A stretch of DNA of 64,000 bases from Escherichia phage vB_EcoM_11B_SA_NWU, in the sequence record OR062527. The stretch is one strand, 5' to 3'. Positions 6,147-44,485 of this stretch are shown here, piece by piece (the first letter of the stretch is position 1; every line of letters starts with the position of its first letter). Made by a program: the position numbers and the translations under genes. The notes beneath the pieces were generated by a model. That model was not told the origin of the DNA and ran no database searches. It saw only the letters and a program-made list of their open reading frames with translations.

Positions 6147-6186
6147 GTATATAGTTTTATGAAAAAATTTTAAACTTTATGCAAAT

Positions 6187-6606
6187 TTATGCTAAAGCTG
6201 CTTCGCACCATTTTTTAATTTGGAATTCAGGAACTACCATGAACTGGCCTGCAAAAACAATATTGTAGAGCTTGACACCATCTTCTACCCAACGGTCCGA
6301 AATAAAACCAGCGACTTGATTCGTTGTCCATGGAGTTCCATCTGTTGCCGCCGCAATTGTGAATTTATGGTCTTTTACAACTAAAACTGAAGAACAAAGT
6401 TTCCATTTAAATGCGCTTTCTTCTGGCTCAATGAACTGACTTGAGACATAACCAATGTTACCATCAGCGTCACGAACTTTAACCTCGTTACGACCAAAAA
6501 CTGGATCACTTACAGAAAGAACTTCAACCAGCTTTCCTGCAACTTTAGAACGAGAAGCAACGGATACATATACGTAATCACCAGTAGAGAGATTTACAAT
6601 ATTCAT
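6187..6606 (-). CDS. tandem paralog 1 of 3 (139 aa), MotB-region family
   Basis: Shares C-terminal motif GFIxDxW(V/I)EDGxxLYN(I/V)VFxGxF with the next two ORFs. Confidence 0.6.
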   Translation of the reverse strand: MNIVNLSTGDYVYVSVASRSKVAGKLVEVLSVSDPVFGRNEVKVRDADGNIGYVSSQFIEPEESAFKWKLCSSVLVVKDHKFTIAAATDGTPWTTNQVAGFISDRWVEDGVKLYNIVFAGQFMVVPEFQIKKWCEAALA

Positions 6607-6615
6607 AATAATTCC

Positions 6616-7089
6616 TTAAGCTTTACGAGGAGAAGCATAACGAGTGATTTCAGATTCTTCAACAACCCGGAAGTCACCTAAAAATACAATATTGTATAGC
6701 TTTTTACCGTCTTCAATCCATTGGTCTGTGATGAAGCCACACATCCTATCAGTTTTACTTGGACCAGCGAAATCATCAATATAATCGAATTCTTCATCAG
6801 TTACAAATTCAACGCCTTTGCACAACGCCCATTTAAATTGTGCATTAGACTCAGTGGATTCAACATCTTCAACAGAAGCAAAATGAGAGCTAACACGAGT
6901 TTCCAGAAATTTAGGACTTACGTAAGCGTACTGAGTTTCAGTTTTTCCAGAACTAGGAATGATTCGAACTTTAATTTCTTTAACACGACCAGTACCATTA
7001 GTACGAAGTCCTACCACTTCAACTAGACGACCTGCAGCTTTAGAACGAGATGCAGACGATACACGCTTAATTTCACCGATAGTAATCAT
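6616..7089 (-). CDS. tandem paralog 2 of 3 (157 aa)
   Basis: Same conserved C-terminal motif (GFITDQWIEDGKKLYNIVF). Confidence 0.6.
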   Translation of the reverse strand: MITIGEIKRVSSASRSKAAGRLVEVVGLRTNGTGRVKEIKVRIIPSSGKTETQYAYVSPKFLETRVSSHFASVEDVESTESNAQFKWALCKGVEFVTDEEFDYIDDFAGPSKTDRMCGFITDQWIEDGKKLYNIVFLGDFRVVEESEITRYASPRKA

Positions 7090-7161: not shown

Positions 7162-7671
7162 TTAATTAAGGATATTAATTACTGCACTGCGTGGAACTAC
7201 ACTAAAATCACCTGCATGAACAACGTTCAGAAGTTCAACACCATCTTCAAGCCACTGATCAGTTACCCAACCACTTACTGGACCAGCAAATGGTCGACGA
7301 ATTGAAACAGCTTTACACAACAAGTCAGTAGGCTCGATAGGCTTAACCAGAGTACCGTACATGCAAGCAATGTCCATATCAAAGTGGAGACCAGTGCTAA
7401 CAGGTGCTTCTTCAATCAACAATTCGAAATCTTGTTCTGTAATATAGACCGTAGATATTGTACCATATAAGTTTTTAATTCTTAAGAATGATACAGATGG
7501 AGCTGTGGCAGTTGATGCAAAAATAGGACCAGCATTTACAATAGTGAAACCTTTACCTTGGGTAACACCAATAAGCTCGCAAAACTTACTATAAGAACCA
7601 TTATTTGCTTCAAACCAGTTTACTTGCTTTTCGTCTTTCAGGATGTAAGTAGCTGTAGTACTGATATTCAT
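7162..7671 (-). CDS. tandem paralog 3 of 3 (169 aa)
   Basis: Same C-terminal motif (GWVTDQWLEDGVELLNVVH); early promoter just downstream at 7129-7161. Confidence 0.6.
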   Translation of the reverse strand: MNISTTATYILKDEKQVNWFEANNGSYSKFCELIGVTQGKGFTIVNAGPIFASTATAPSVSFLRIKNLYGTISTVYITEQDFELLIEEAPVSTGLHFDMDIACMYGTLVKPIEPTDLLCKAVSIRRPFAGPVSGWVTDQWLEDGVELLNVVHAGDFSVVPRSAVINILN

Positions 7672-7683
7672 GATGTTTTCCCC

Positions 7684-15868: not shown

Positions 15869-16009
15869 TTACAATTTAGCTGCTTTCCAGAGTTGTTCAA
15901 TAATCTCTTGGTCTATTTCTTTAGTTATTTCATTACGTAATAAGGCAGTAAGGGCTTTCGCCCTTTTCTTATTCAACTTTTTGAGCTGACGCTTATTTAA
16001 ACGAGCCAT
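15869..16009 (-). CDS. basic micro-ORF (46 aa), soc.x-like
   Basis: Hand-translated MARLNKRQLKKLNKKRAKALTALL...; its ATG overlaps the gene 56 stop (TAATG); GAGGT Shine-Dalgarno. Confidence 0.45.
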   Translation of the reverse strand: MARLNKRQLKKLNKKRAKALTALLRNEITKEIDQEIIEQLWKAAKL

Positions 16010-16527
16010 TAATAACCTCGGTCTTGACGAGCGAAGTTTTCGGCATTTTTCAGATAATAAAGTTTAAAGATTTCTTCAGCTGACATTCCAAGAGCAATAA
16101 ATTTATTCATAAAAAAGTGAAACTGATCAATTAGTTCAAATTTAATTTCAAGCTGATCTTCGGGAGATAAATCTTGAATTTTCTTGGATTGCATTTCGGA
16201 ATAACGTTTCTTCCAAGGTTTCCATACAGCAGAAGCTTCTTTTTCACCATTACTCATACCACCGAGAGAAGTATATAGCTCGCGAGTTTCGTCTGCGATA
16301 TAATCGTCTTGGTTTCGCAGCCAAGCAAGAACTTCTCCTGCAGTTTCAAGTGAATCAGGATGACGATTTGTTTCTGGTTTATCATTAGCCAAACGAATCT
16401 GTAAATGCCGCTGCATATCAAGCATAACCTGCAGTGGGTCAATATTGTGCATAATATTCTCAGCATATGCACGATTTGCTTTATCAACGCCTTCGATCAA
16501 ATGAGCACATTCATTAAAGTGAGCCAT
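16009..16527 (-). CDS. 56: dCTP pyrophosphatase gp56 (about 172 aa; start at internal Met, not the 203-aa track ORF)
   Basis: Sequence from MAHFNECAHL onward matches T4 gp56 as recalled; AAGGAAA Shine-Dalgarno 7 nt before this ATG; MotA-type middle promoter upstream. Confidence 0.85.
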   Translation of the reverse strand: MAHFNECAHLIEGVDKANRAYAENIMHNIDPLQVMLDMQRHLQIRLANDKPETNRHPDSLETAGEVLAWLRNQDDYIADETRELYTSLGGMSNGEKEASAVWKPWKKRYSEMQSKKIQDLSPEDQLEIKFELIDQFHFFMNKFIALGMSAEEIFKLYYLKNAENFARQDRGY

Positions 16528-21275: not shown

Positions 21276-21638
21276 TTAAAAGAATTTAAACTTTTTCTTT
21301 GACCTTTTATTAAATGCATCTTGTAGTTGCATTGTAATACATTTTTCTACATGAGGAGCTAACTCAGCTTTTCTTTCTTGGTCAAGAACAGCAAAGTCCA
21401 TTACGACTTTTCCATCAACCCAATCTAATTTTGTCACATACACAATGTGTGTAGAACCATCTTCTAGTTTAATGACAATCTCCTGGATAACATTTTCCAT
21501 GGCAGATTTAATTATCTTAAGAGATTCATTAAAAAGACGTTCTTTTCTTTCTTCTTCCCCCTCCGAAGAGGGGGATTCATCGATAATTTCTAGATCTAAA
21601 TCTAAATCATCTTTATTCATTAAATTCTTCCATATCAC
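21276..21638 (-). CDS. gene 40-like protein by position (120 aa)
   Basis: ORF between uvsX and 41 as in T4; start overlaps the uvsX 3' end. Confidence 0.45.
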   Translation of the reverse strand: MIWKNLMNKDDLDLDLEIIDESPSSEGEEERKERLFNESLKIIKSAMENVIQEIVIKLEDGSTHIVYVTKLDWVDGKVVMDFAVLDQERKAELAPHVEKCITMQLQDAFNKRSKKKFKFF

Positions 21639-22794
21639 TTAACTGCTCGAGGTCAGTTTCTAAATCAGCGGCTGATTTACTTTTACTTTCTGGAGATTTA
21701 AATTTTTCAACCTTTGAGTTAATCAATTCATCAACTTCAGCTTCAACAATTTCATTACTATCAATAGCACCTAATTGATAAGCACGTTTAATAGCATCTC
21801 GGAATGGTTGATGCTTAAATAAAGGACCCCAGAATGTAGTGCAATTGGTATCTTTTGCACGCCAAGATTTTTCTTCGCGAATCATCTCGCCGGTTTCTTC
21901 GTCAAGAAATTCACGAGCATACCAACCATTCTTAGGTTTTACTACAAATCCTAATTCTAGAGCCATATCTAACAATCCAGAATAAGGATCGATACCACCG
22001 TCAAATTTAACATCAATAAAGAATTTACTTTTTTCTTTAACGGTACGAGATTTTTCTACATTTAGAACAAATTGATACCCCTGAAGATCAGAACCATCTT
22101 TAATCTGACGTTTACCGATAATGAATACAGTATCAGCCGAATACATTACGCCTGTACCGCCTGTCATCACGGTTTTACTAAACATTTCAATTGTTTCAAT
22201 TGTATGGTTAACCGCAACGCATGGAATATTTTTAATGCTAAAGTAAGGAGTAACAATACGGAATAATGACTTCAGTGATTTAGCACGAGTCATATCTGCC
22301 ACAGATTTTTCATTCAAGGCATCTTCAGTTTCTTTCTTAGAAGCCATATTACCGATTGAGTCGATGAATACAATAACTTTTTCACCGCGCTCAATAGCTT
22401 CAAGCTGATTCACCATATCAATTTTCAGCTGTTCAACTGACTGAATTGGCGTATGAATTACTCGTTCCGGGTCAACTCCCATGGATCGCAAATAAGCTGG
22501 AGTAATACCAAATTCGCTATCATAGAATAGACAAACCGCGTCAGGATATTTGTTCAAATACGCCGCAACCATAGTCAAAGACATATTTGATTTAAAGTGC
22601 TTAGAAGGCCCTGCGAAAATAGTTAAACCAGACTGCATTCCACCATCAATCGCACCTGAAATAGCGATATTAAGCATTGGGATTTTTGTACGGATTACAT
22701 CCTTTTCATTAAAGAATTTAGATGTAGTCAGTTCAGCAGTCATTTTAGAAGTGGAAGCTTTAATCAAACGGGATTTTAAATCTGCAATAGACAT
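21613..22794 (-). CDS. uvsX: UvsX recombinase (393 aa), RecA-like
   Basis: RecA fold motifs (GPSKHFKS); near-identity to T4 UvsX as recalled; synteny. Confidence 0.9.
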   Translation of the reverse strand: MSIADLKSRLIKASTSKMTAELTTSKFFNEKDVIRTKIPMLNIAISGAIDGGMQSGLTIFAGPSKHFKSNMSLTMVAAYLNKYPDAVCLFYDSEFGITPAYLRSMGVDPERVIHTPIQSVEQLKIDMVNQLEAIERGEKVIVFIDSIGNMASKKETEDALNEKSVADMTRAKSLKSLFRIVTPYFSIKNIPCVAVNHTIETIEMFSKTVMTGGTGVMYSADTVFIIGKRQIKDGSDLQGYQFVLNVEKSRTVKEKSKFFIDVKFDGGIDPYSGLLDMALELGFVVKPKNGWYAREFLDEETGEMIREEKSWRAKDTNCTTFWGPLFKHQPFRDAIKRAYQLGAIDSNEIVEAEVDELINSKVEKFKSPESKSKSAADLETDLEQLSDMEEFNE

Positions 22795-22871
22795 TCATTT
22801 TTTCCATAGGCATCATTATATTTTCCTCACTGGTTAAAGATAGAGTAATTATAACACAATAAATTTAGGCA

Positions 22872-23720
22872 TTAATCAACTGCTATTGGATGAATAGCAT
22901 TAAACTTATGAAATGCTTCTGATTTTTCTTTACGTGAAACACACATGCGAAGAACCTTTAATGGCTCGTCTTCTTCACCCAACGATTTTCGTTTTTCAAT
23001 ATTAGAAGTTTTCCAACGAGCTTGCTCTGGAAACTCTCTATTGATTTGCTCAAGCGCTCTATTATGTTTAGAATTACTACGAATTGAACTGCACCCTCCA
23101 GGAGCTTGTGCTTTTCCAGATACAACCAGATATTTGAACAAGGCCAAATGCGGATAACCTTGATTAATTAAATTGAGAAATGCATACATATCTTCGCACA
23201 AATCAATTTTTCCATACCCAATTTGTTCTGTCGTAAGTTTTCCGAGGTCATACCATGTATTCGTGAATCCATATGAATTTTCACGATAATTACCCCAAGA
23301 TGAAGTAATTTTAAAAATAGGTAGACGAGCATGACCATGATAATACCCGCAATCCATGGCATCCTCAACATATTGAATCAATTCATAGAACTGTTCACGA
23401 GTTAATTGATTAATTTTATCTACACAACGACGATCATCTCTTTTTCGCATTGAGCTCATACGAATAGTAGTATCATCGTCAATCATCCAGATTCGTTGAC
23501 CTGCATACATATCAGTAATTGCTTTACGAGTACCGGCAATTCCGTTTACATCATCAGGAATAGTTATAATTTTAGCTCTAGACCCATAGGCATCATAATA
23601 AGCTTTTTCTTCATGTTCACGCACTACAATATGGGGTTCATAATCAGTCGGAAACATATCAAGGGCAGAAACTGCCCCGACACGCTGATAACTTGGAATT
23701 ACGAATTGAATCATTTCCAC
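22872..23720 (-). CDS. GT-A-type glycosyltransferase (282 aa) in the T4 beta-gt position; candidate beta-glucosyl-HMC-alpha-glucosyltransferase
   Basis: DxD motif (WMIDDDTTI); does not resemble the 351-aa T4 beta-gt as recalled; located between uvsX and 42. Confidence 0.5.
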   Translation of the reverse strand: MEMIQFVIPSYQRVGAVSALDMFPTDYEPHIVVREHEEKAYYDAYGSRAKIITIPDDVNGIAGTRKAITDMYAGQRIWMIDDDTTIRMSSMRKRDDRRCVDKINQLTREQFYELIQYVEDAMDCGYYHGHARLPIFKITSSWGNYRENSYGFTNTWYDLGKLTTEQIGYGKIDLCEDMYAFLNLINQGYPHLALFKYLVVSGKAQAPGGCSSIRSNSKHNRALEQINREFPEQARWKTSNIEKRKSLGEEDEPLKVLRMCVSRKEKSEAFHKFNAIHPIAVD

Positions 23721-24451
23721 TCACCGTTATAATCTTTTTTCGCAATATGAGTTTCGCCAGTATTCCACCAATGGTCAACCAAATAAAAATGGCGGGAATA
23801 CACATGAAGACTTCCGACATTCCATATAATAGAACCTGCTTTATACTGACGAGTTGAATCACCTGCATTCAAATCAGATACTAATTTATCTAGTACGTAT
23901 TTTTGCCATGCATAATCATTACGGAATCCGAAGACCACGTCATTTGAACGCATGTTTACTACTGCATTGACTTTCTTATCACGAATCAAGTACTGTACTG
24001 TATTCGTACACATGAAATCTGACATACCATCTTTACGATAGTCAAACTGCATGGATGGGCGAGTATAAATCATGATACCACGCCGAGAATCAGGATTTTG
24101 ACCAAGTTCAAATAAACACATATCATACTGGGCATAGTTATCTTCTGACCAGATGGCCCAACCATAATTCGAGTTAATTTCGCCTTTAGAAGATGCTACC
24201 TGCTGCCAAATCTTTGGTGTTTCACCTGGAATATCTTTAACAAACAAGCTCTTAGATTTATACCATTCAAGTTCACGCTGAATGTATTCATCATTAAGAG
24301 CGCCAAAAATAAACGGTTCATCTGCTACAAATGATGCGCCAATAATTTCAATAGTTTTAACGCCAGTTTTATCAACTACGAAATCTTTTTCTTTTAATGC
24401 AAGCCCCAAATGAAGACGGATTTCTTCAACTGTCATAGAGTCACTAATCAT
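23711..24451 (-). CDS. 42: dCMP hydroxymethylase gp42 (246 aa)
   Basis: Thymidylate-synthase-like fold; 246 aa as in T4 gp42; synteny. Confidence 0.9.
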   Translation of the reverse strand: MISDSMTVEEIRLHLGLALKEKDFVVDKTGVKTIEIIGASFVADEPFIFGALNDEYIQRELEWYKSKSLFVKDIPGETPKIWQQVASSKGEINSNYGWAIWSEDNYAQYDMCLFELGQNPDSRRGIMIYTRPSMQFDYRKDGMSDFMCTNTVQYLIRDKKVNAVVNMRSNDVVFGFRNDYAWQKYVLDKLVSDLNAGDSTRQYKAGSIIWNVGSLHVYSRHFYLVDHWWNTGETHIAKKDYNGEWK

Positions 24452-24458
24452 TTAAACC

Positions 24459-24608
24459 TCAATTGATACATTCATATTTAACTTGTAACAGTAATAAACC
24501 CCAACCTAAAATAATAGTTGGAATCATAAGAGGAACCGTTACACTATAGTATATACTTATTATAACCATCAAGATTAAAAGCAACACTGCTATAATTTTG
24601 CTTTTCAT
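24459..24608 (-). CDS. micro membrane protein (49 aa)
   Basis: Hand-translated MKSKIIAVLLLILMVIISIYY...; ATGA overlap with the imm stop. Confidence 0.4.
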   Translation of the reverse strand: MKSKIIAVLLLILMVIISIYYSVTVPLMIPTIILGWGLLLLQVKYECIN

Positions 24609-24856
24609 TCCTTCTCTCTGATGATAATTACCTGATTTGGCTGTGCAGACTTTTTGGTTTCACCTGCAATTGACCAAATAAATGTAATAAACCAACCAAT
24701 GATTGACCAGTTAAACAGTAAAGACGTGAAAAAGATTCCTACTGTTGATTTAGACCCACGCATCAAGGCGATGAAGCACGGAAGCATGTATATAATAATA
24801 GCCAACACGCCTGAAACTAAAACCATAAAAATTGAACCTGCTACTAAAGTTTCCAT
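24605..24856 (-). CDS. imm: Imm superinfection immunity membrane protein (83 aa)
   Basis: 83-aa two-TM protein in the T4 imm position between 42 and 43. Confidence 0.8.
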   Translation of the reverse strand: METLVAGSIFMVLVSGVLAIIIYMLPCFIALMRGSKSTVGIFFTSLLFNWSIIGWFITFIWSIAGETKKSAQPNQVIIIREKE

Positions 24857-35034: not shown

Positions 35035-36237
35035 TTATTTTGTAATAATGTCAAACTGTTCTTTAAAGCAGAAGCTTGAATCTTGATGCTGATACAAAAA
35101 TTCATAAGCTTTTTCGCGTTCGCGGTCATAAAGAGTTCGGTCAGATGACAGTTCTTTAATACGTTCAAATGTTGATTCCATGTCATTTTCATCAAACCAA
35201 ATGATACCGCTATCATGCGAGGTCAAAGGAGTATTATCAACACGGAATTTTAAATTTTCGCCAGTAGATTTCCAAAATACCGGAATTGTTCCACATGCAC
35301 CAAGCTCGAGATGAGTATATTCTAAAGAACGTTGTAGATATTTTTTATCTAATTTACTCAGCTGATAACCAAATCCGGATTTACTCATACGTTCAAGCAT
35401 TTCGCTATTTACATAACGGTCGAGAATTTGCGTTGGCAAATTAGGAGCAATTTTAATTTGGTCTACTTGATGAAGACGATAATACTCGTATGGAATTCCT
35501 TTTTCTTTAATAGGAATGAACGCTGGAGAACGTTCCAGACCTTCCATAATAGTACTCAATCCTGCAGGTTTAAGATGTTTTTCATGAAAATCAAACATCT
35601 GATAAAAGCCTTTCCATGTAGTCGTACGACCAATCCAACGGTTGACATTCATATTAATTTCAGAAACATCTTTCCAGTAGGTTGATCGAACCTTCGCAAT
35701 ATCCATAGGAGGTTGAAAGTTATATACTGTCGGTGCTTCTTCAATATCATCAAACAGAGAAACTGTTTCTGGATACCATTCTTTCATCAGAACTTTATTA
35801 AAATCACCATTATCAGAATGACTGAAAATAACATCAGCTCGACGAACAGTTTCTTCTAATCCCAAATTTCGGCGCAAAGAAAGAGAAGAATGGTCATGTT
35901 GATAAACTACAACACGAACAGAAGGTTTAATGTTATCAATAATTTTTTTATAGTTATTAATAGTGTCTTCTTCAACCGAAGTAGCAGGAACTGAATTGAT
36001 AATTAGAATATCACAATCATTTACCAGCTTAAGTGTTTTATCGTATTCTTTTGCCAATAAAACCGGAATTGAAAATGATTTATAATCATGCGCACAATTA
36101 CGAGTAAATGATTTATCTTTAGCATAAACCAAAGTTACTTCATGACCATTTTTAATAAACCAATCACGTTGCTCAAGAGAAAATTTAGTTACACCACAAC
36201 CTTCAAGACCTCGAGCCATAAAAATACATACTTTCAT
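35035..36237 (-). CDS. a-gt: DNA alpha-glucosyltransferase (400 aa)
   Basis: 400 aa; near-identity to T4 alpha-gt as recalled (CIFMARGLEGCGVTKFSLEQRDWF); MotA-box promoter upstream. Confidence 0.9.
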   Translation of the reverse strand: MKVCIFMARGLEGCGVTKFSLEQRDWFIKNGHEVTLVYAKDKSFTRNCAHDYKSFSIPVLLAKEYDKTLKLVNDCDILIINSVPATSVEEDTINNYKKIIDNIKPSVRVVVYQHDHSSLSLRRNLGLEETVRRADVIFSHSDNGDFNKVLMKEWYPETVSLFDDIEEAPTVYNFQPPMDIAKVRSTYWKDVSEINMNVNRWIGRTTTWKGFYQMFDFHEKHLKPAGLSTIMEGLERSPAFIPIKEKGIPYEYYRLHQVDQIKIAPNLPTQILDRYVNSEMLERMSKSGFGYQLSKLDKKYLQRSLEYTHLELGACGTIPVFWKSTGENLKFRVDNTPLTSHDSGIIWFDENDMESTFERIKELSSDRTLYDREREKAYEFLYQHQDSSFCFKEQFDIITK

Positions 36238-43839: not shown

Positions 43840-43960
43840 TTAAGTCATTTATCGTTGGTTCATTATACACCGTTTCTTCATCAGTGTAAACCGGTTCTTC
43901 CGGCTCTGGCTCTACAGTTTCCCATCTAGCCGCCCACCAAGGTTTTATAGCGTAATCCAT
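43805..43960 (-). CDS. acidic micro-ORF (51 aa) in a locally GC-rich stretch, weak support
   Basis: Hand-translated MDYAIKPWWAARWETVEPEPEEP...; overlaps both neighbours. Confidence 0.3.
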   Translation of the reverse strand: MDYAIKPWWAARWETVEPEPEEPVYTDEETVYNEPTINDLIDMEMGHDYSR

Positions 43961-44265
43961 TCTCGTACTATCTGAGTTACTACACGTTCCCGGGGCTCGA
44001 CTAGTTCAACAGTCGGAACTGCATAATACCAGTCAGAATGGTAAGAACCCGAACGGCATTCATTTACGGAAACATGTACGTTATGTTTTGGACTAAAATA
44101 AACACACTGACGATATTGGCATTTACCATCTTGCACCCAGTCTTCTATTTCGACAGGTTTAAGATAATCGGAAAAATCGAAATCATAGTTTTCTGAAAAT
44201 GCATCATGGTCTTCAATGATTTCACTCAGAACTGCATCAACATCTAATTTATTTTCAATAGTCAT
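43945..44265 (-). CDS. hypothetical protein (106 aa)
   Basis: Minus-strand ORF. Confidence 0.5.
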   Translation of the reverse strand: MTIENKLDVDAVLSEIIEDHDAFSENYDFDFSDYLKPVEIEDWVQDGKCQYRQCVYFSPKHNVHVSVNECRSGSYHSDWYYAVPTVELVEPRERVVTQIVREWITL

Positions 44266-44275
44266 TTTTCACCAA

Positions 44276-44485
44276 TTAATTTCGCAATTTATTAAGTTCT
44301 TCATAATCAATCCAGGATTCTAATCCTGATGGCAAATCAGATTCAATTTCCCAAAGAAGTTCTTCAATTTTATGAAGACGATCTAGTTCTTCAGCAGGAA
44401 TAGTAACCATTGACGGAGCTCTTGCTACATTAATATCGTAAATCATATTTACCCCAGTTTGACCATACAATCGCCGTATTTCCAC
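44276..44485 (-). CDS. small protein (69 aa)
   Basis: Minus-strand ORF. Confidence 0.5.
   Translation of the reverse strand: MEIRRLYGQTGVNMIYDINVARAPSMVTIPAEELDRLHKIEELLWEIESDLPSGLESWIDYEELNKLRN

Follow-up and report, generated by a model that had tools for sequence, protein, structure and literature searches.

Phage T4 encodes segA and a 351-aa beta-glucosyltransferase (b-gt) in the interval between uvsX and gene 42. The question addressed here is what occupies this interval in Escherichia phage vB_EcoM_11B_SA_NWU, of which a stretch of 64,000 nucleotides (record OR062527, the window) was analyzed, and which sugars the product would be expected to place on the phage DNA. A sequence-only reading had proposed a GT-A glycosyltransferase of 282 aa in the position of T4 b-gt, unlike the T4 enzyme, that together with a conserved alpha-gt would produce a T2/T6-type pattern with gentiobiose; its description of the T4 interval was correct, with segA to be added. 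The features of the window bearing on the question are as follows.

22872..23714, minus strand: coding sequence of ba-gt (Pfam TAGT), 280 aa followed by a TAA stop, from the open reading frame, PF20691, PHROG 842 and identity to RB3 and T6.
23711..23714, minus strand: ATGA start/stop overlap of ba-gt and gene 42, read directly, with the same start annotated in RB3, T2, Solly, CP and BGP.
21613-22794: uvsX, downstream of ba-gt; PF21134 and RecA matches, 90.5% identical to T4 UvsX.
23711..24451, minus strand: gene 42, upstream of ba-gt; dCMP hydroxymethylase, source of hydroxymethyl-dCMP and so of hmC in DNA; PF00303, 96.7% identity to T4 gp42.
35035..36237, minus strand: alpha-gt (a-gt), 400 aa, makes the alpha-glucosyl-hmC acceptor for ba-gt; PF11440 AGT at 785 bits over profile positions 1-354 of 355, PHROG 2888.
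16009..16527, minus strand: gene 56, dCTPase/dCDPase, excludes unmodified C from phage DNA; colinear with the annotated Bas38 CDS at ~95% nucleotide identity.

The open reading frame on the minus strand extends over 22872..23720 and contains 282 codons when counted from a GTG. Inspection of the sequence revealed an ATG at 23714-23712 that forms an ATGA overlap with the gene 42 stop codon TGA (23713-23711) and is preceded at a few bases by GGTGA, a Shine-Dalgarno-like sequence. The corresponding ATG is the annotated start in RB3, T2, Solly, CP, BGP and Bas38 (843 nt, 280 aa plus stop). These results point to a protein that most likely has 280 aa rather than 282, so that the open reading frame and its position between uvsX and gene 42 stand as first described and the length does not. 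The sequence reads ...GGTGAGTGGAAATGATTCAA.... The ATGA overlap suggests co-transcription of ba-gt with gene 42 and, possibly, translational coupling to the dCMP hydroxymethylase gene. The G+C content (0.34-0.38) and strand skew of ba-gt run on unbroken from the flanks. The chance of a 282-codon open frame was estimated by us at ~1.5e-9 per start position for ~36% G+C, although a chance origin is irrelevant since homologues exist in 474 phage records. A promoter and terminator scan of 22600-24700 gave counts at shuffle expectation (12 vs 9.7 and 1 vs 1.0, respectively), and the single terminator-like hairpin was disregarded, being inside coding sequence. The 77-nt stretch that separates ba-gt from uvsX showed no RNA structure on folding (z = 0.28). 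The minus strand of this spacer contains TGCCTAA, 11 nt and TATAAT with an extended -10 at 22848-22871 (TGTTATAAT), an element left out by the simple sigma-70 scan as it has no -35 element. In terms of the MotA-box consensus, the element resembles a middle promoter of the T4 type that might serve uvsX.

The 474 records matched ba-gt by megablast at 90% nucleotide identity or above; nearly all are Tequatrovirus, with Escherichia, Shigella, Yersinia, Salmonella and Citrobacter as hosts, and many annotate the gene as beta-glucosyl-HMC-alpha-glucosyltransferase. A tblastn search added ~200 records of T4-like phages of Klebsiella, Enterobacter and Salmonella at 60-80% identity. Over its 280 aa, the product has 100% identity with the RB3 enzyme and 98% identity with that of T6, differs from that of T2 by three substitutions (98.9%), and differs from those of Solly and CP by one (I101V) and two substitutions, respectively, all conservative. 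The PHROG match was phrog_842, 'beta-glucosyl-HMC-alpha-glucosyltransferase' (E 2.4e-89), and this match together with the identity to the T6, T2 and RB3 proteins marks the gene as an orthologue of T2/T6 ba-gt, located as expected between uvsX and gene 42 of a Tequatrovirus genome. The Pfam family PF20691 (TAGT) was matched over profile positions 2-205 of 205 with a full-model score of 38.2 bits, above the curated gathering threshold of 27.5. NCBIfam and PADLOC gave no match for the protein. The conserved alpha-gt reported at 35035-36237 is real, lies on the minus strand and contains a full-length PF11440 domain. Given the observed sequence identity and synteny, the fold class, the conserved motifs and the presence of alpha-gt, and with function and product taken from the literature, the gene is very probably the T2/T6-type ba-gt (also called g-gt or TAGT) acting in a pathway that leads from gp42 through alpha-gt and ba-gt to gentiobiosyl-hmC.

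The expectation that the protein would not resemble T4 beta-gt was confirmed, and a homologue of the T4 enzyme was rejected: the best BLASTP E value between the window protein and T4 b-gt was 3.4. T4 b-gt belongs to PF09198 (325 bits), a family that the window protein does not match, whereas PF20691 includes both the window protein and its T6 counterpart. Neither b-gt nor segA of T4 was found by tblastn in the 64-kb window (best E 1.3 and 4.8), which thus contains an intact alpha-gt and no T4-type beta-gt. These comparisons indicate that the slot between uvsX and gene 42 is filled by a non-homologous replacement and not by a diverged orthologue of T4 beta-gt. The two enzymes share the slot, the UDP-glucose donor, the beta linkage and the modification of hmC DNA; they differ in family, in fold (GT-B for T4 b-gt, PDB 1JG7 as cited in PMC13216743, and GT-A here) and in acceptor, which is the hydroxyl of hmC for T4 b-gt and the 6-OH of alpha-glucosyl-hmC for ba-gt. 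The location of TAGT where T4 has beta-GT was stated by the authors for the Durham Tequatrovirus phages (PMC13390438). The usual Tequatrovirus arrangement is alpha-GT plus TAGT, and the T4-style alpha and beta pair occurs in only 6 of 753 glucosyltransferase-encoding genomes (PMC13216743); therefore, the window represents the norm and not the exception. Publications already describe the gene and its product as well as the fold class and the synteny with T4 beta-gt, and such an enzyme is ordinary for these phages.

Mobile endonuclease genes have a hot spot in the interval from uvsX to gene 42. In T4, segA adjoins b-gt (L003:4571-5236), and in BASEL phage Bas38 a putative homing endonuclease has inserted precisely at the junction of ba-gt and gene 42 (L004:20803-21444). 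The window has neither segA nor the Bas38-type insert at 23711-23716, and the ATGA overlap is kept. Many Tequatrovirus genomes match the 24-kb stretch around ba-gt at 96-97.6% identity, and the window is colinear with Bas38. Three segments (6184-6897, 7336-7675 and 43946-44288) gave no or weak (~70%) nucleotide matches to Bas38, to which the window is elsewhere ~95% identical; presumably, they are T-even hyperplastic regions.

An AlphaFold2 model computed from a 9-sequence alignment had a pTM of 0.75 and a mean pLDDT of 73. The pLDDT was 85-94 over the N-terminal half of alternating strands and helices, and confidence was low for residues 130-140, 191-211 and 241-249, with values below 50 for 191-211. 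A Foldseek search of the PDB with the model returned only GT-A glycosyltransferases (WrtF, K4CP, AvpGT, TarP, TarS and RmlT) and sugar nucleotidyltransferases that share this fold, with E values of ~1e-4 to 1e-3 and modest TM-scores of 0.3-0.45 (0.35-0.45 to solved GT-A enzymes). Since only GT-A-fold structures were returned, the GT-A label given from sequence is confirmed, in agreement with the assignment of T6 TAGT by AF3 as GT-A and sister to GT2 (PMC13216743). The model consists of the single Rossmann-like nucleotide-diphospho-sugar transferase fold of this class, and the DxD motif follows the fourth beta-strand, D79-D81 coming directly after strand E74-77. Sequence searches of the PDB with the single protein, a 9-sequence profile or a 150-sequence profile gave no significant match to a solved structure; matches to polycystin and TLR4 (E ~0.1-1) are due to chance. 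The only meaningful weak profile match was AvpGT (E 0.13-0.25), a GT2 beta-1,3-glucosyltransferase also returned by the fold search, with IPSYQR aligned to IPTYNR, GIAGTR to GPSGAR and WMLDDD to AFLDDD. Compared with GT2-type GT-A enzymes (BcsA 9fmv, K4CP 2z86, TarP 6h1j, AvpGT 9jma and SpsA 1h7l), to which the window protein has 7-16% sequence identity, ba-gt is a small soluble single domain that has glucosylated duplex DNA as acceptor and a family-specific GGCxxxR motif.

The wider TAGT family became visible by an exhaustive profile search, which gave 2,167 cluster representatives at E <= 0.001; a less exhaustive homologue search had given just 11 relatives. Conservation was evaluated on 153 aligned full-length members, whose median identity to the window protein is 23%, and was confirmed by MAFFT. 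R11 is Arg in 151 of the 151 members aligned at this position. Conservation in the 153-member alignment was 93% for R63; 99%, 100% and 95% for D79, D80 and D81; 79% for E174 and 100% for D175; 99% for G186; and 99%, 100%, 85% and 98% for G206, G207, C208 and R212. The window protein has the complete family-invariant set of R11, R63, D79, D80, D81, D175, G186, G206, G207 and R212, including the motif WMIDDDTTI that had been recognized at the outset, whose DDD codons are at 23472-23480. The conserved motifs were located as follows.

23682..23699, minus strand: I6-P7-S8-Y9-Q10-R11, loop after strand beta-1, putative nucleotide-sugar binding motif equivalent to GT2 IPTYNR.
23472..23480, minus strand: D79-D80-D81, DxD-type motif where strand E74-77 ends, putative metal/UDP-diphosphate ligands, aligning to AvpGT LDDDD.
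23190..23195, minus strand: E174-D175, with D175 the candidate catalytic base, ~95 residues past the DxD at the start of helix 174-184.
23079..23099, minus strand: G206-G207-C208-S-S-I-R212, family-specific motif, modelled within a loop of low confidence.

Since no TAGT with a solved structure was detectable by sequence search of the PDB, we infer the roles of these residues from the fold and from their conservation. Conservation, spacing and established knowledge of GT2 enzymes make D175 a candidate general base, the counterpart of the GT2 'ED/TED' base, and the G206-R212 motif might, speculatively, bind the acceptor, either DNA or the glucosyl group. The hydroxymethyl source of the TAGT family is typically a TET/JBP dioxygenase acting on DNA, whereas here it is gp42, acting on dCMP before replication; the gene adjoining ba-gt encodes this dCMP hydroxymethylase and not TET. 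The T-even members are known exceptions to the TET/JBP association (PMC13216743), which thus is no strict mark of the family. The acceptor of ba-gt is also set apart, being a sugar already on the base, whereas for the family otherwise it is the hydroxymethyl base itself.

The proposed pathway would begin with the production of hydroxymethyl-dCMP by gp42. After replication, alpha-gt would place an alpha-linked glucose on hmC in DNA, and ba-gt would transfer a glucose from UDP-glucose to the 6-OH of this first glucose in beta-1,6 linkage, yielding gentiobiosyl-hmC. In ba-gt, the IPSYxR loop and R63 would hold the nucleotide, D79-D80-D81 would bind a divalent metal and the diphosphate, and D175 as general base would activate the acceptor hydroxyl for an inverting single displacement from alpha-UDP-Glc to the beta product. 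The conversion of an alpha-linked donor to a beta product fits a GT2-like fold. T6 deleted for ba-gt contains only alpha-glucosyl-hmC, and its DNA is degradable by Brig1 in vitro and the phage more sensitive in vivo (PMC11078745). BapA releases glucose from DNA of T6 deleted for g-gt and not from wild-type T6 DNA (bioRxiv 10.64898/2026.02.25.707755). By LC-MS, DNA of Durham Tequatrovirus phages contains 5hmdC together with its alpha-glucosyl and alpha-gentiobiosyl derivatives but not the beta-glucosyl one, with ~1/3 5hmC and ~2/3 gentiobiosyl-hmC in Solly and CP (PMC13390438). The T2/T6-type gentiobiose pattern suggested by the sequence-only reading is supported by the 98-100% identity to the T6, T2 and RB3 enzymes and by alpha-gt. 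The predicted composition for the phage of the window is ~1/3 free hmC and ~2/3 gentiobiosyl-hmC with little alpha-monoglucosyl-hmC, which would be T6/Solly-like and not T2-like, since the invariant residues are all kept and the protein is 0-2 residues from the enzymes of phages with ~2/3 gentiobiosyl-hmC. The prediction is quantitatively soft because phages whose genes are very similar differ in the mono- to diglucosyl ratio, the gentiobiosyl share being ~5% in T2, ~40% in the BGP group and ~70% in Solly and T6. The BGP group has hmC, alpha-glucosyl and gentiobiosyl forms at 1:2:2. The BGP protein (L008:7199-8041) has six substitutions relative to the window protein (I50V, M89I, R95K, C97R, A202S and Q203H), and A202S and Q203H adjoin the invariant G206-G207 motif.

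The gene itself is known, and the comparison of alleles is the only mildly novel thread of the analysis. The ba-gt genes of T2, T6 and RB3 (ba-gt, ggt or g-gt; YP_010067197.1; PHROG 842) share with that of the window the position between uvsX and gene 42, the ATGA overlap and the alpha-gt partner. In RefSeq T6 (NC_054907 = AP018814; L002:2735-2745) one GAT is missing from GATGATGAT encoding D79-D81, which leaves GATGAT, whereas the window keeps all three Asp codons at 23472-23480. The deletion is unique to RefSeq T6 among 473 phage records, T6 MH550421 having all three codons, and may be a stock mutation or the result of slippage or an assembly error. The RefSeq T6 protein YP_010067197.1 was the family reference and the AF3 model in PMC13216743. 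T6 MH550421 has a CAG to TAG amber at codon 10 (L005:745-747), absent from the equivalent window position 23685-23687, and its ba-gt is annotated from Met20 (261 aa), so that strand beta-1 and IPSYxR would be lost. Thus, both public T6 genomes carry a lesion in the gene behind the gentiobiosyl-hmC that is a hallmark of T6. All seven T2 records (e.g. MH751506, L007:4096-4098) and SV76 have R11H, a CGT to CAT change equivalent to window position 23682-23684, where the window encodes Arg. The exact 81-nt T2 segment was found only in T2 and SV76 (8 of 461 records); 31-mers requiring CAT at codon 11 gave no match in two other common sequence contexts, with 49 records for the CGT control. Among the records tested, His11 is therefore confined to T2 and SV76. 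The gentiobiosyl-hmC content of T2 (~5%) and T6 (~72%) is a difference known for 60 years, for which no published explanation was found in the literature searched; a contingency-locus preprint does not apply, its subject being agt and not ba-gt. The invariance of R11 in the family makes R11H a candidate cause of the low gentiobiosyl content of T2. Comparison with the fully intact allele of the window makes it conceivable, though less likely than not, that point lesions, natural or from the laboratory, at invariant residues of ba-gt set the mono- to diglucosyl ratio of T-even phages and that the T2-T6 difference perhaps derives from R11H. If so, the phage of the window would have a high-gentiobiose phenotype.

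The same alleles bear on the explanation that the window encodes a weak or inactive ba-gt, as T2 apparently does, which would leave the DNA mainly alpha-monoglucosylated with a few percent of gentiobiosyl-hmC. The T2 protein differs at only three residues and yet T2 has the classically low content, and the lesions in both T6 records show that growth in the laboratory does not require the gene. However, the window protein has none of these lesions, with R11 not replaced by His, DDD intact and no premature stop, and it is identical to that of RB3 and one or two conservative residues from those of Solly and CP, for which ~2/3 gentiobiosyl-hmC was measured; a weak allele is accordingly unlikely in this phage.

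Occupation of the genomic slot of T4 beta-gt is consistent with a functional replacement of that enzyme which adds a single beta-glucose straight to free hmC, and TAGT homologues are also found with beta-GT or alone (PMC13216743), so that acceptor specificity may vary within the family. Against such an activity, Durham Tequatrovirus phages with the gene have no detectable beta-glucosyl-hmC and still ~1/3 naked hmC (PMC13390438), and T6 lacking the gene keeps alpha-glucosyl-hmC and loses just the second sugar (PMC11078745; bioRxiv 10.64898/2026.02.25.707755), results that make it highly improbable. Use of a donor sugar different from glucose, or formation of a linkage that is not beta-1,6, is the least probable of the alternatives: the 2,167 TAGT cluster representatives are mostly uncharacterised and arabinose is used instead in related phages (PMC13390438; PMC13216743), but an enzyme 98-100% identical to those of phages in which gentiobiose was chemically identified is very unlikely to have switched donor or linkage. 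The reading of the gene as T2/T6-type ba-gt is thus preferred.

For the window, the identity of ba-gt matters as annotation in that it predicts gentiobiosyl-hmC and not the alpha/beta monoglucosyl mixture of T4. The predicted modification bears on host range versus sugar-specific defences. Gentiobiosyl-hmC is uncut by Brig1 in vitro and yields no glucose to BapA (PMC11078745; bioRxiv 10.64898/2026.02.25.707755), and it remains a target of GmrSD- and BrxU-type enzymes. The sugar pattern is also relevant to the choice of therapeutic Tequatrovirus phages and to the cutting and sequencing of their DNA.
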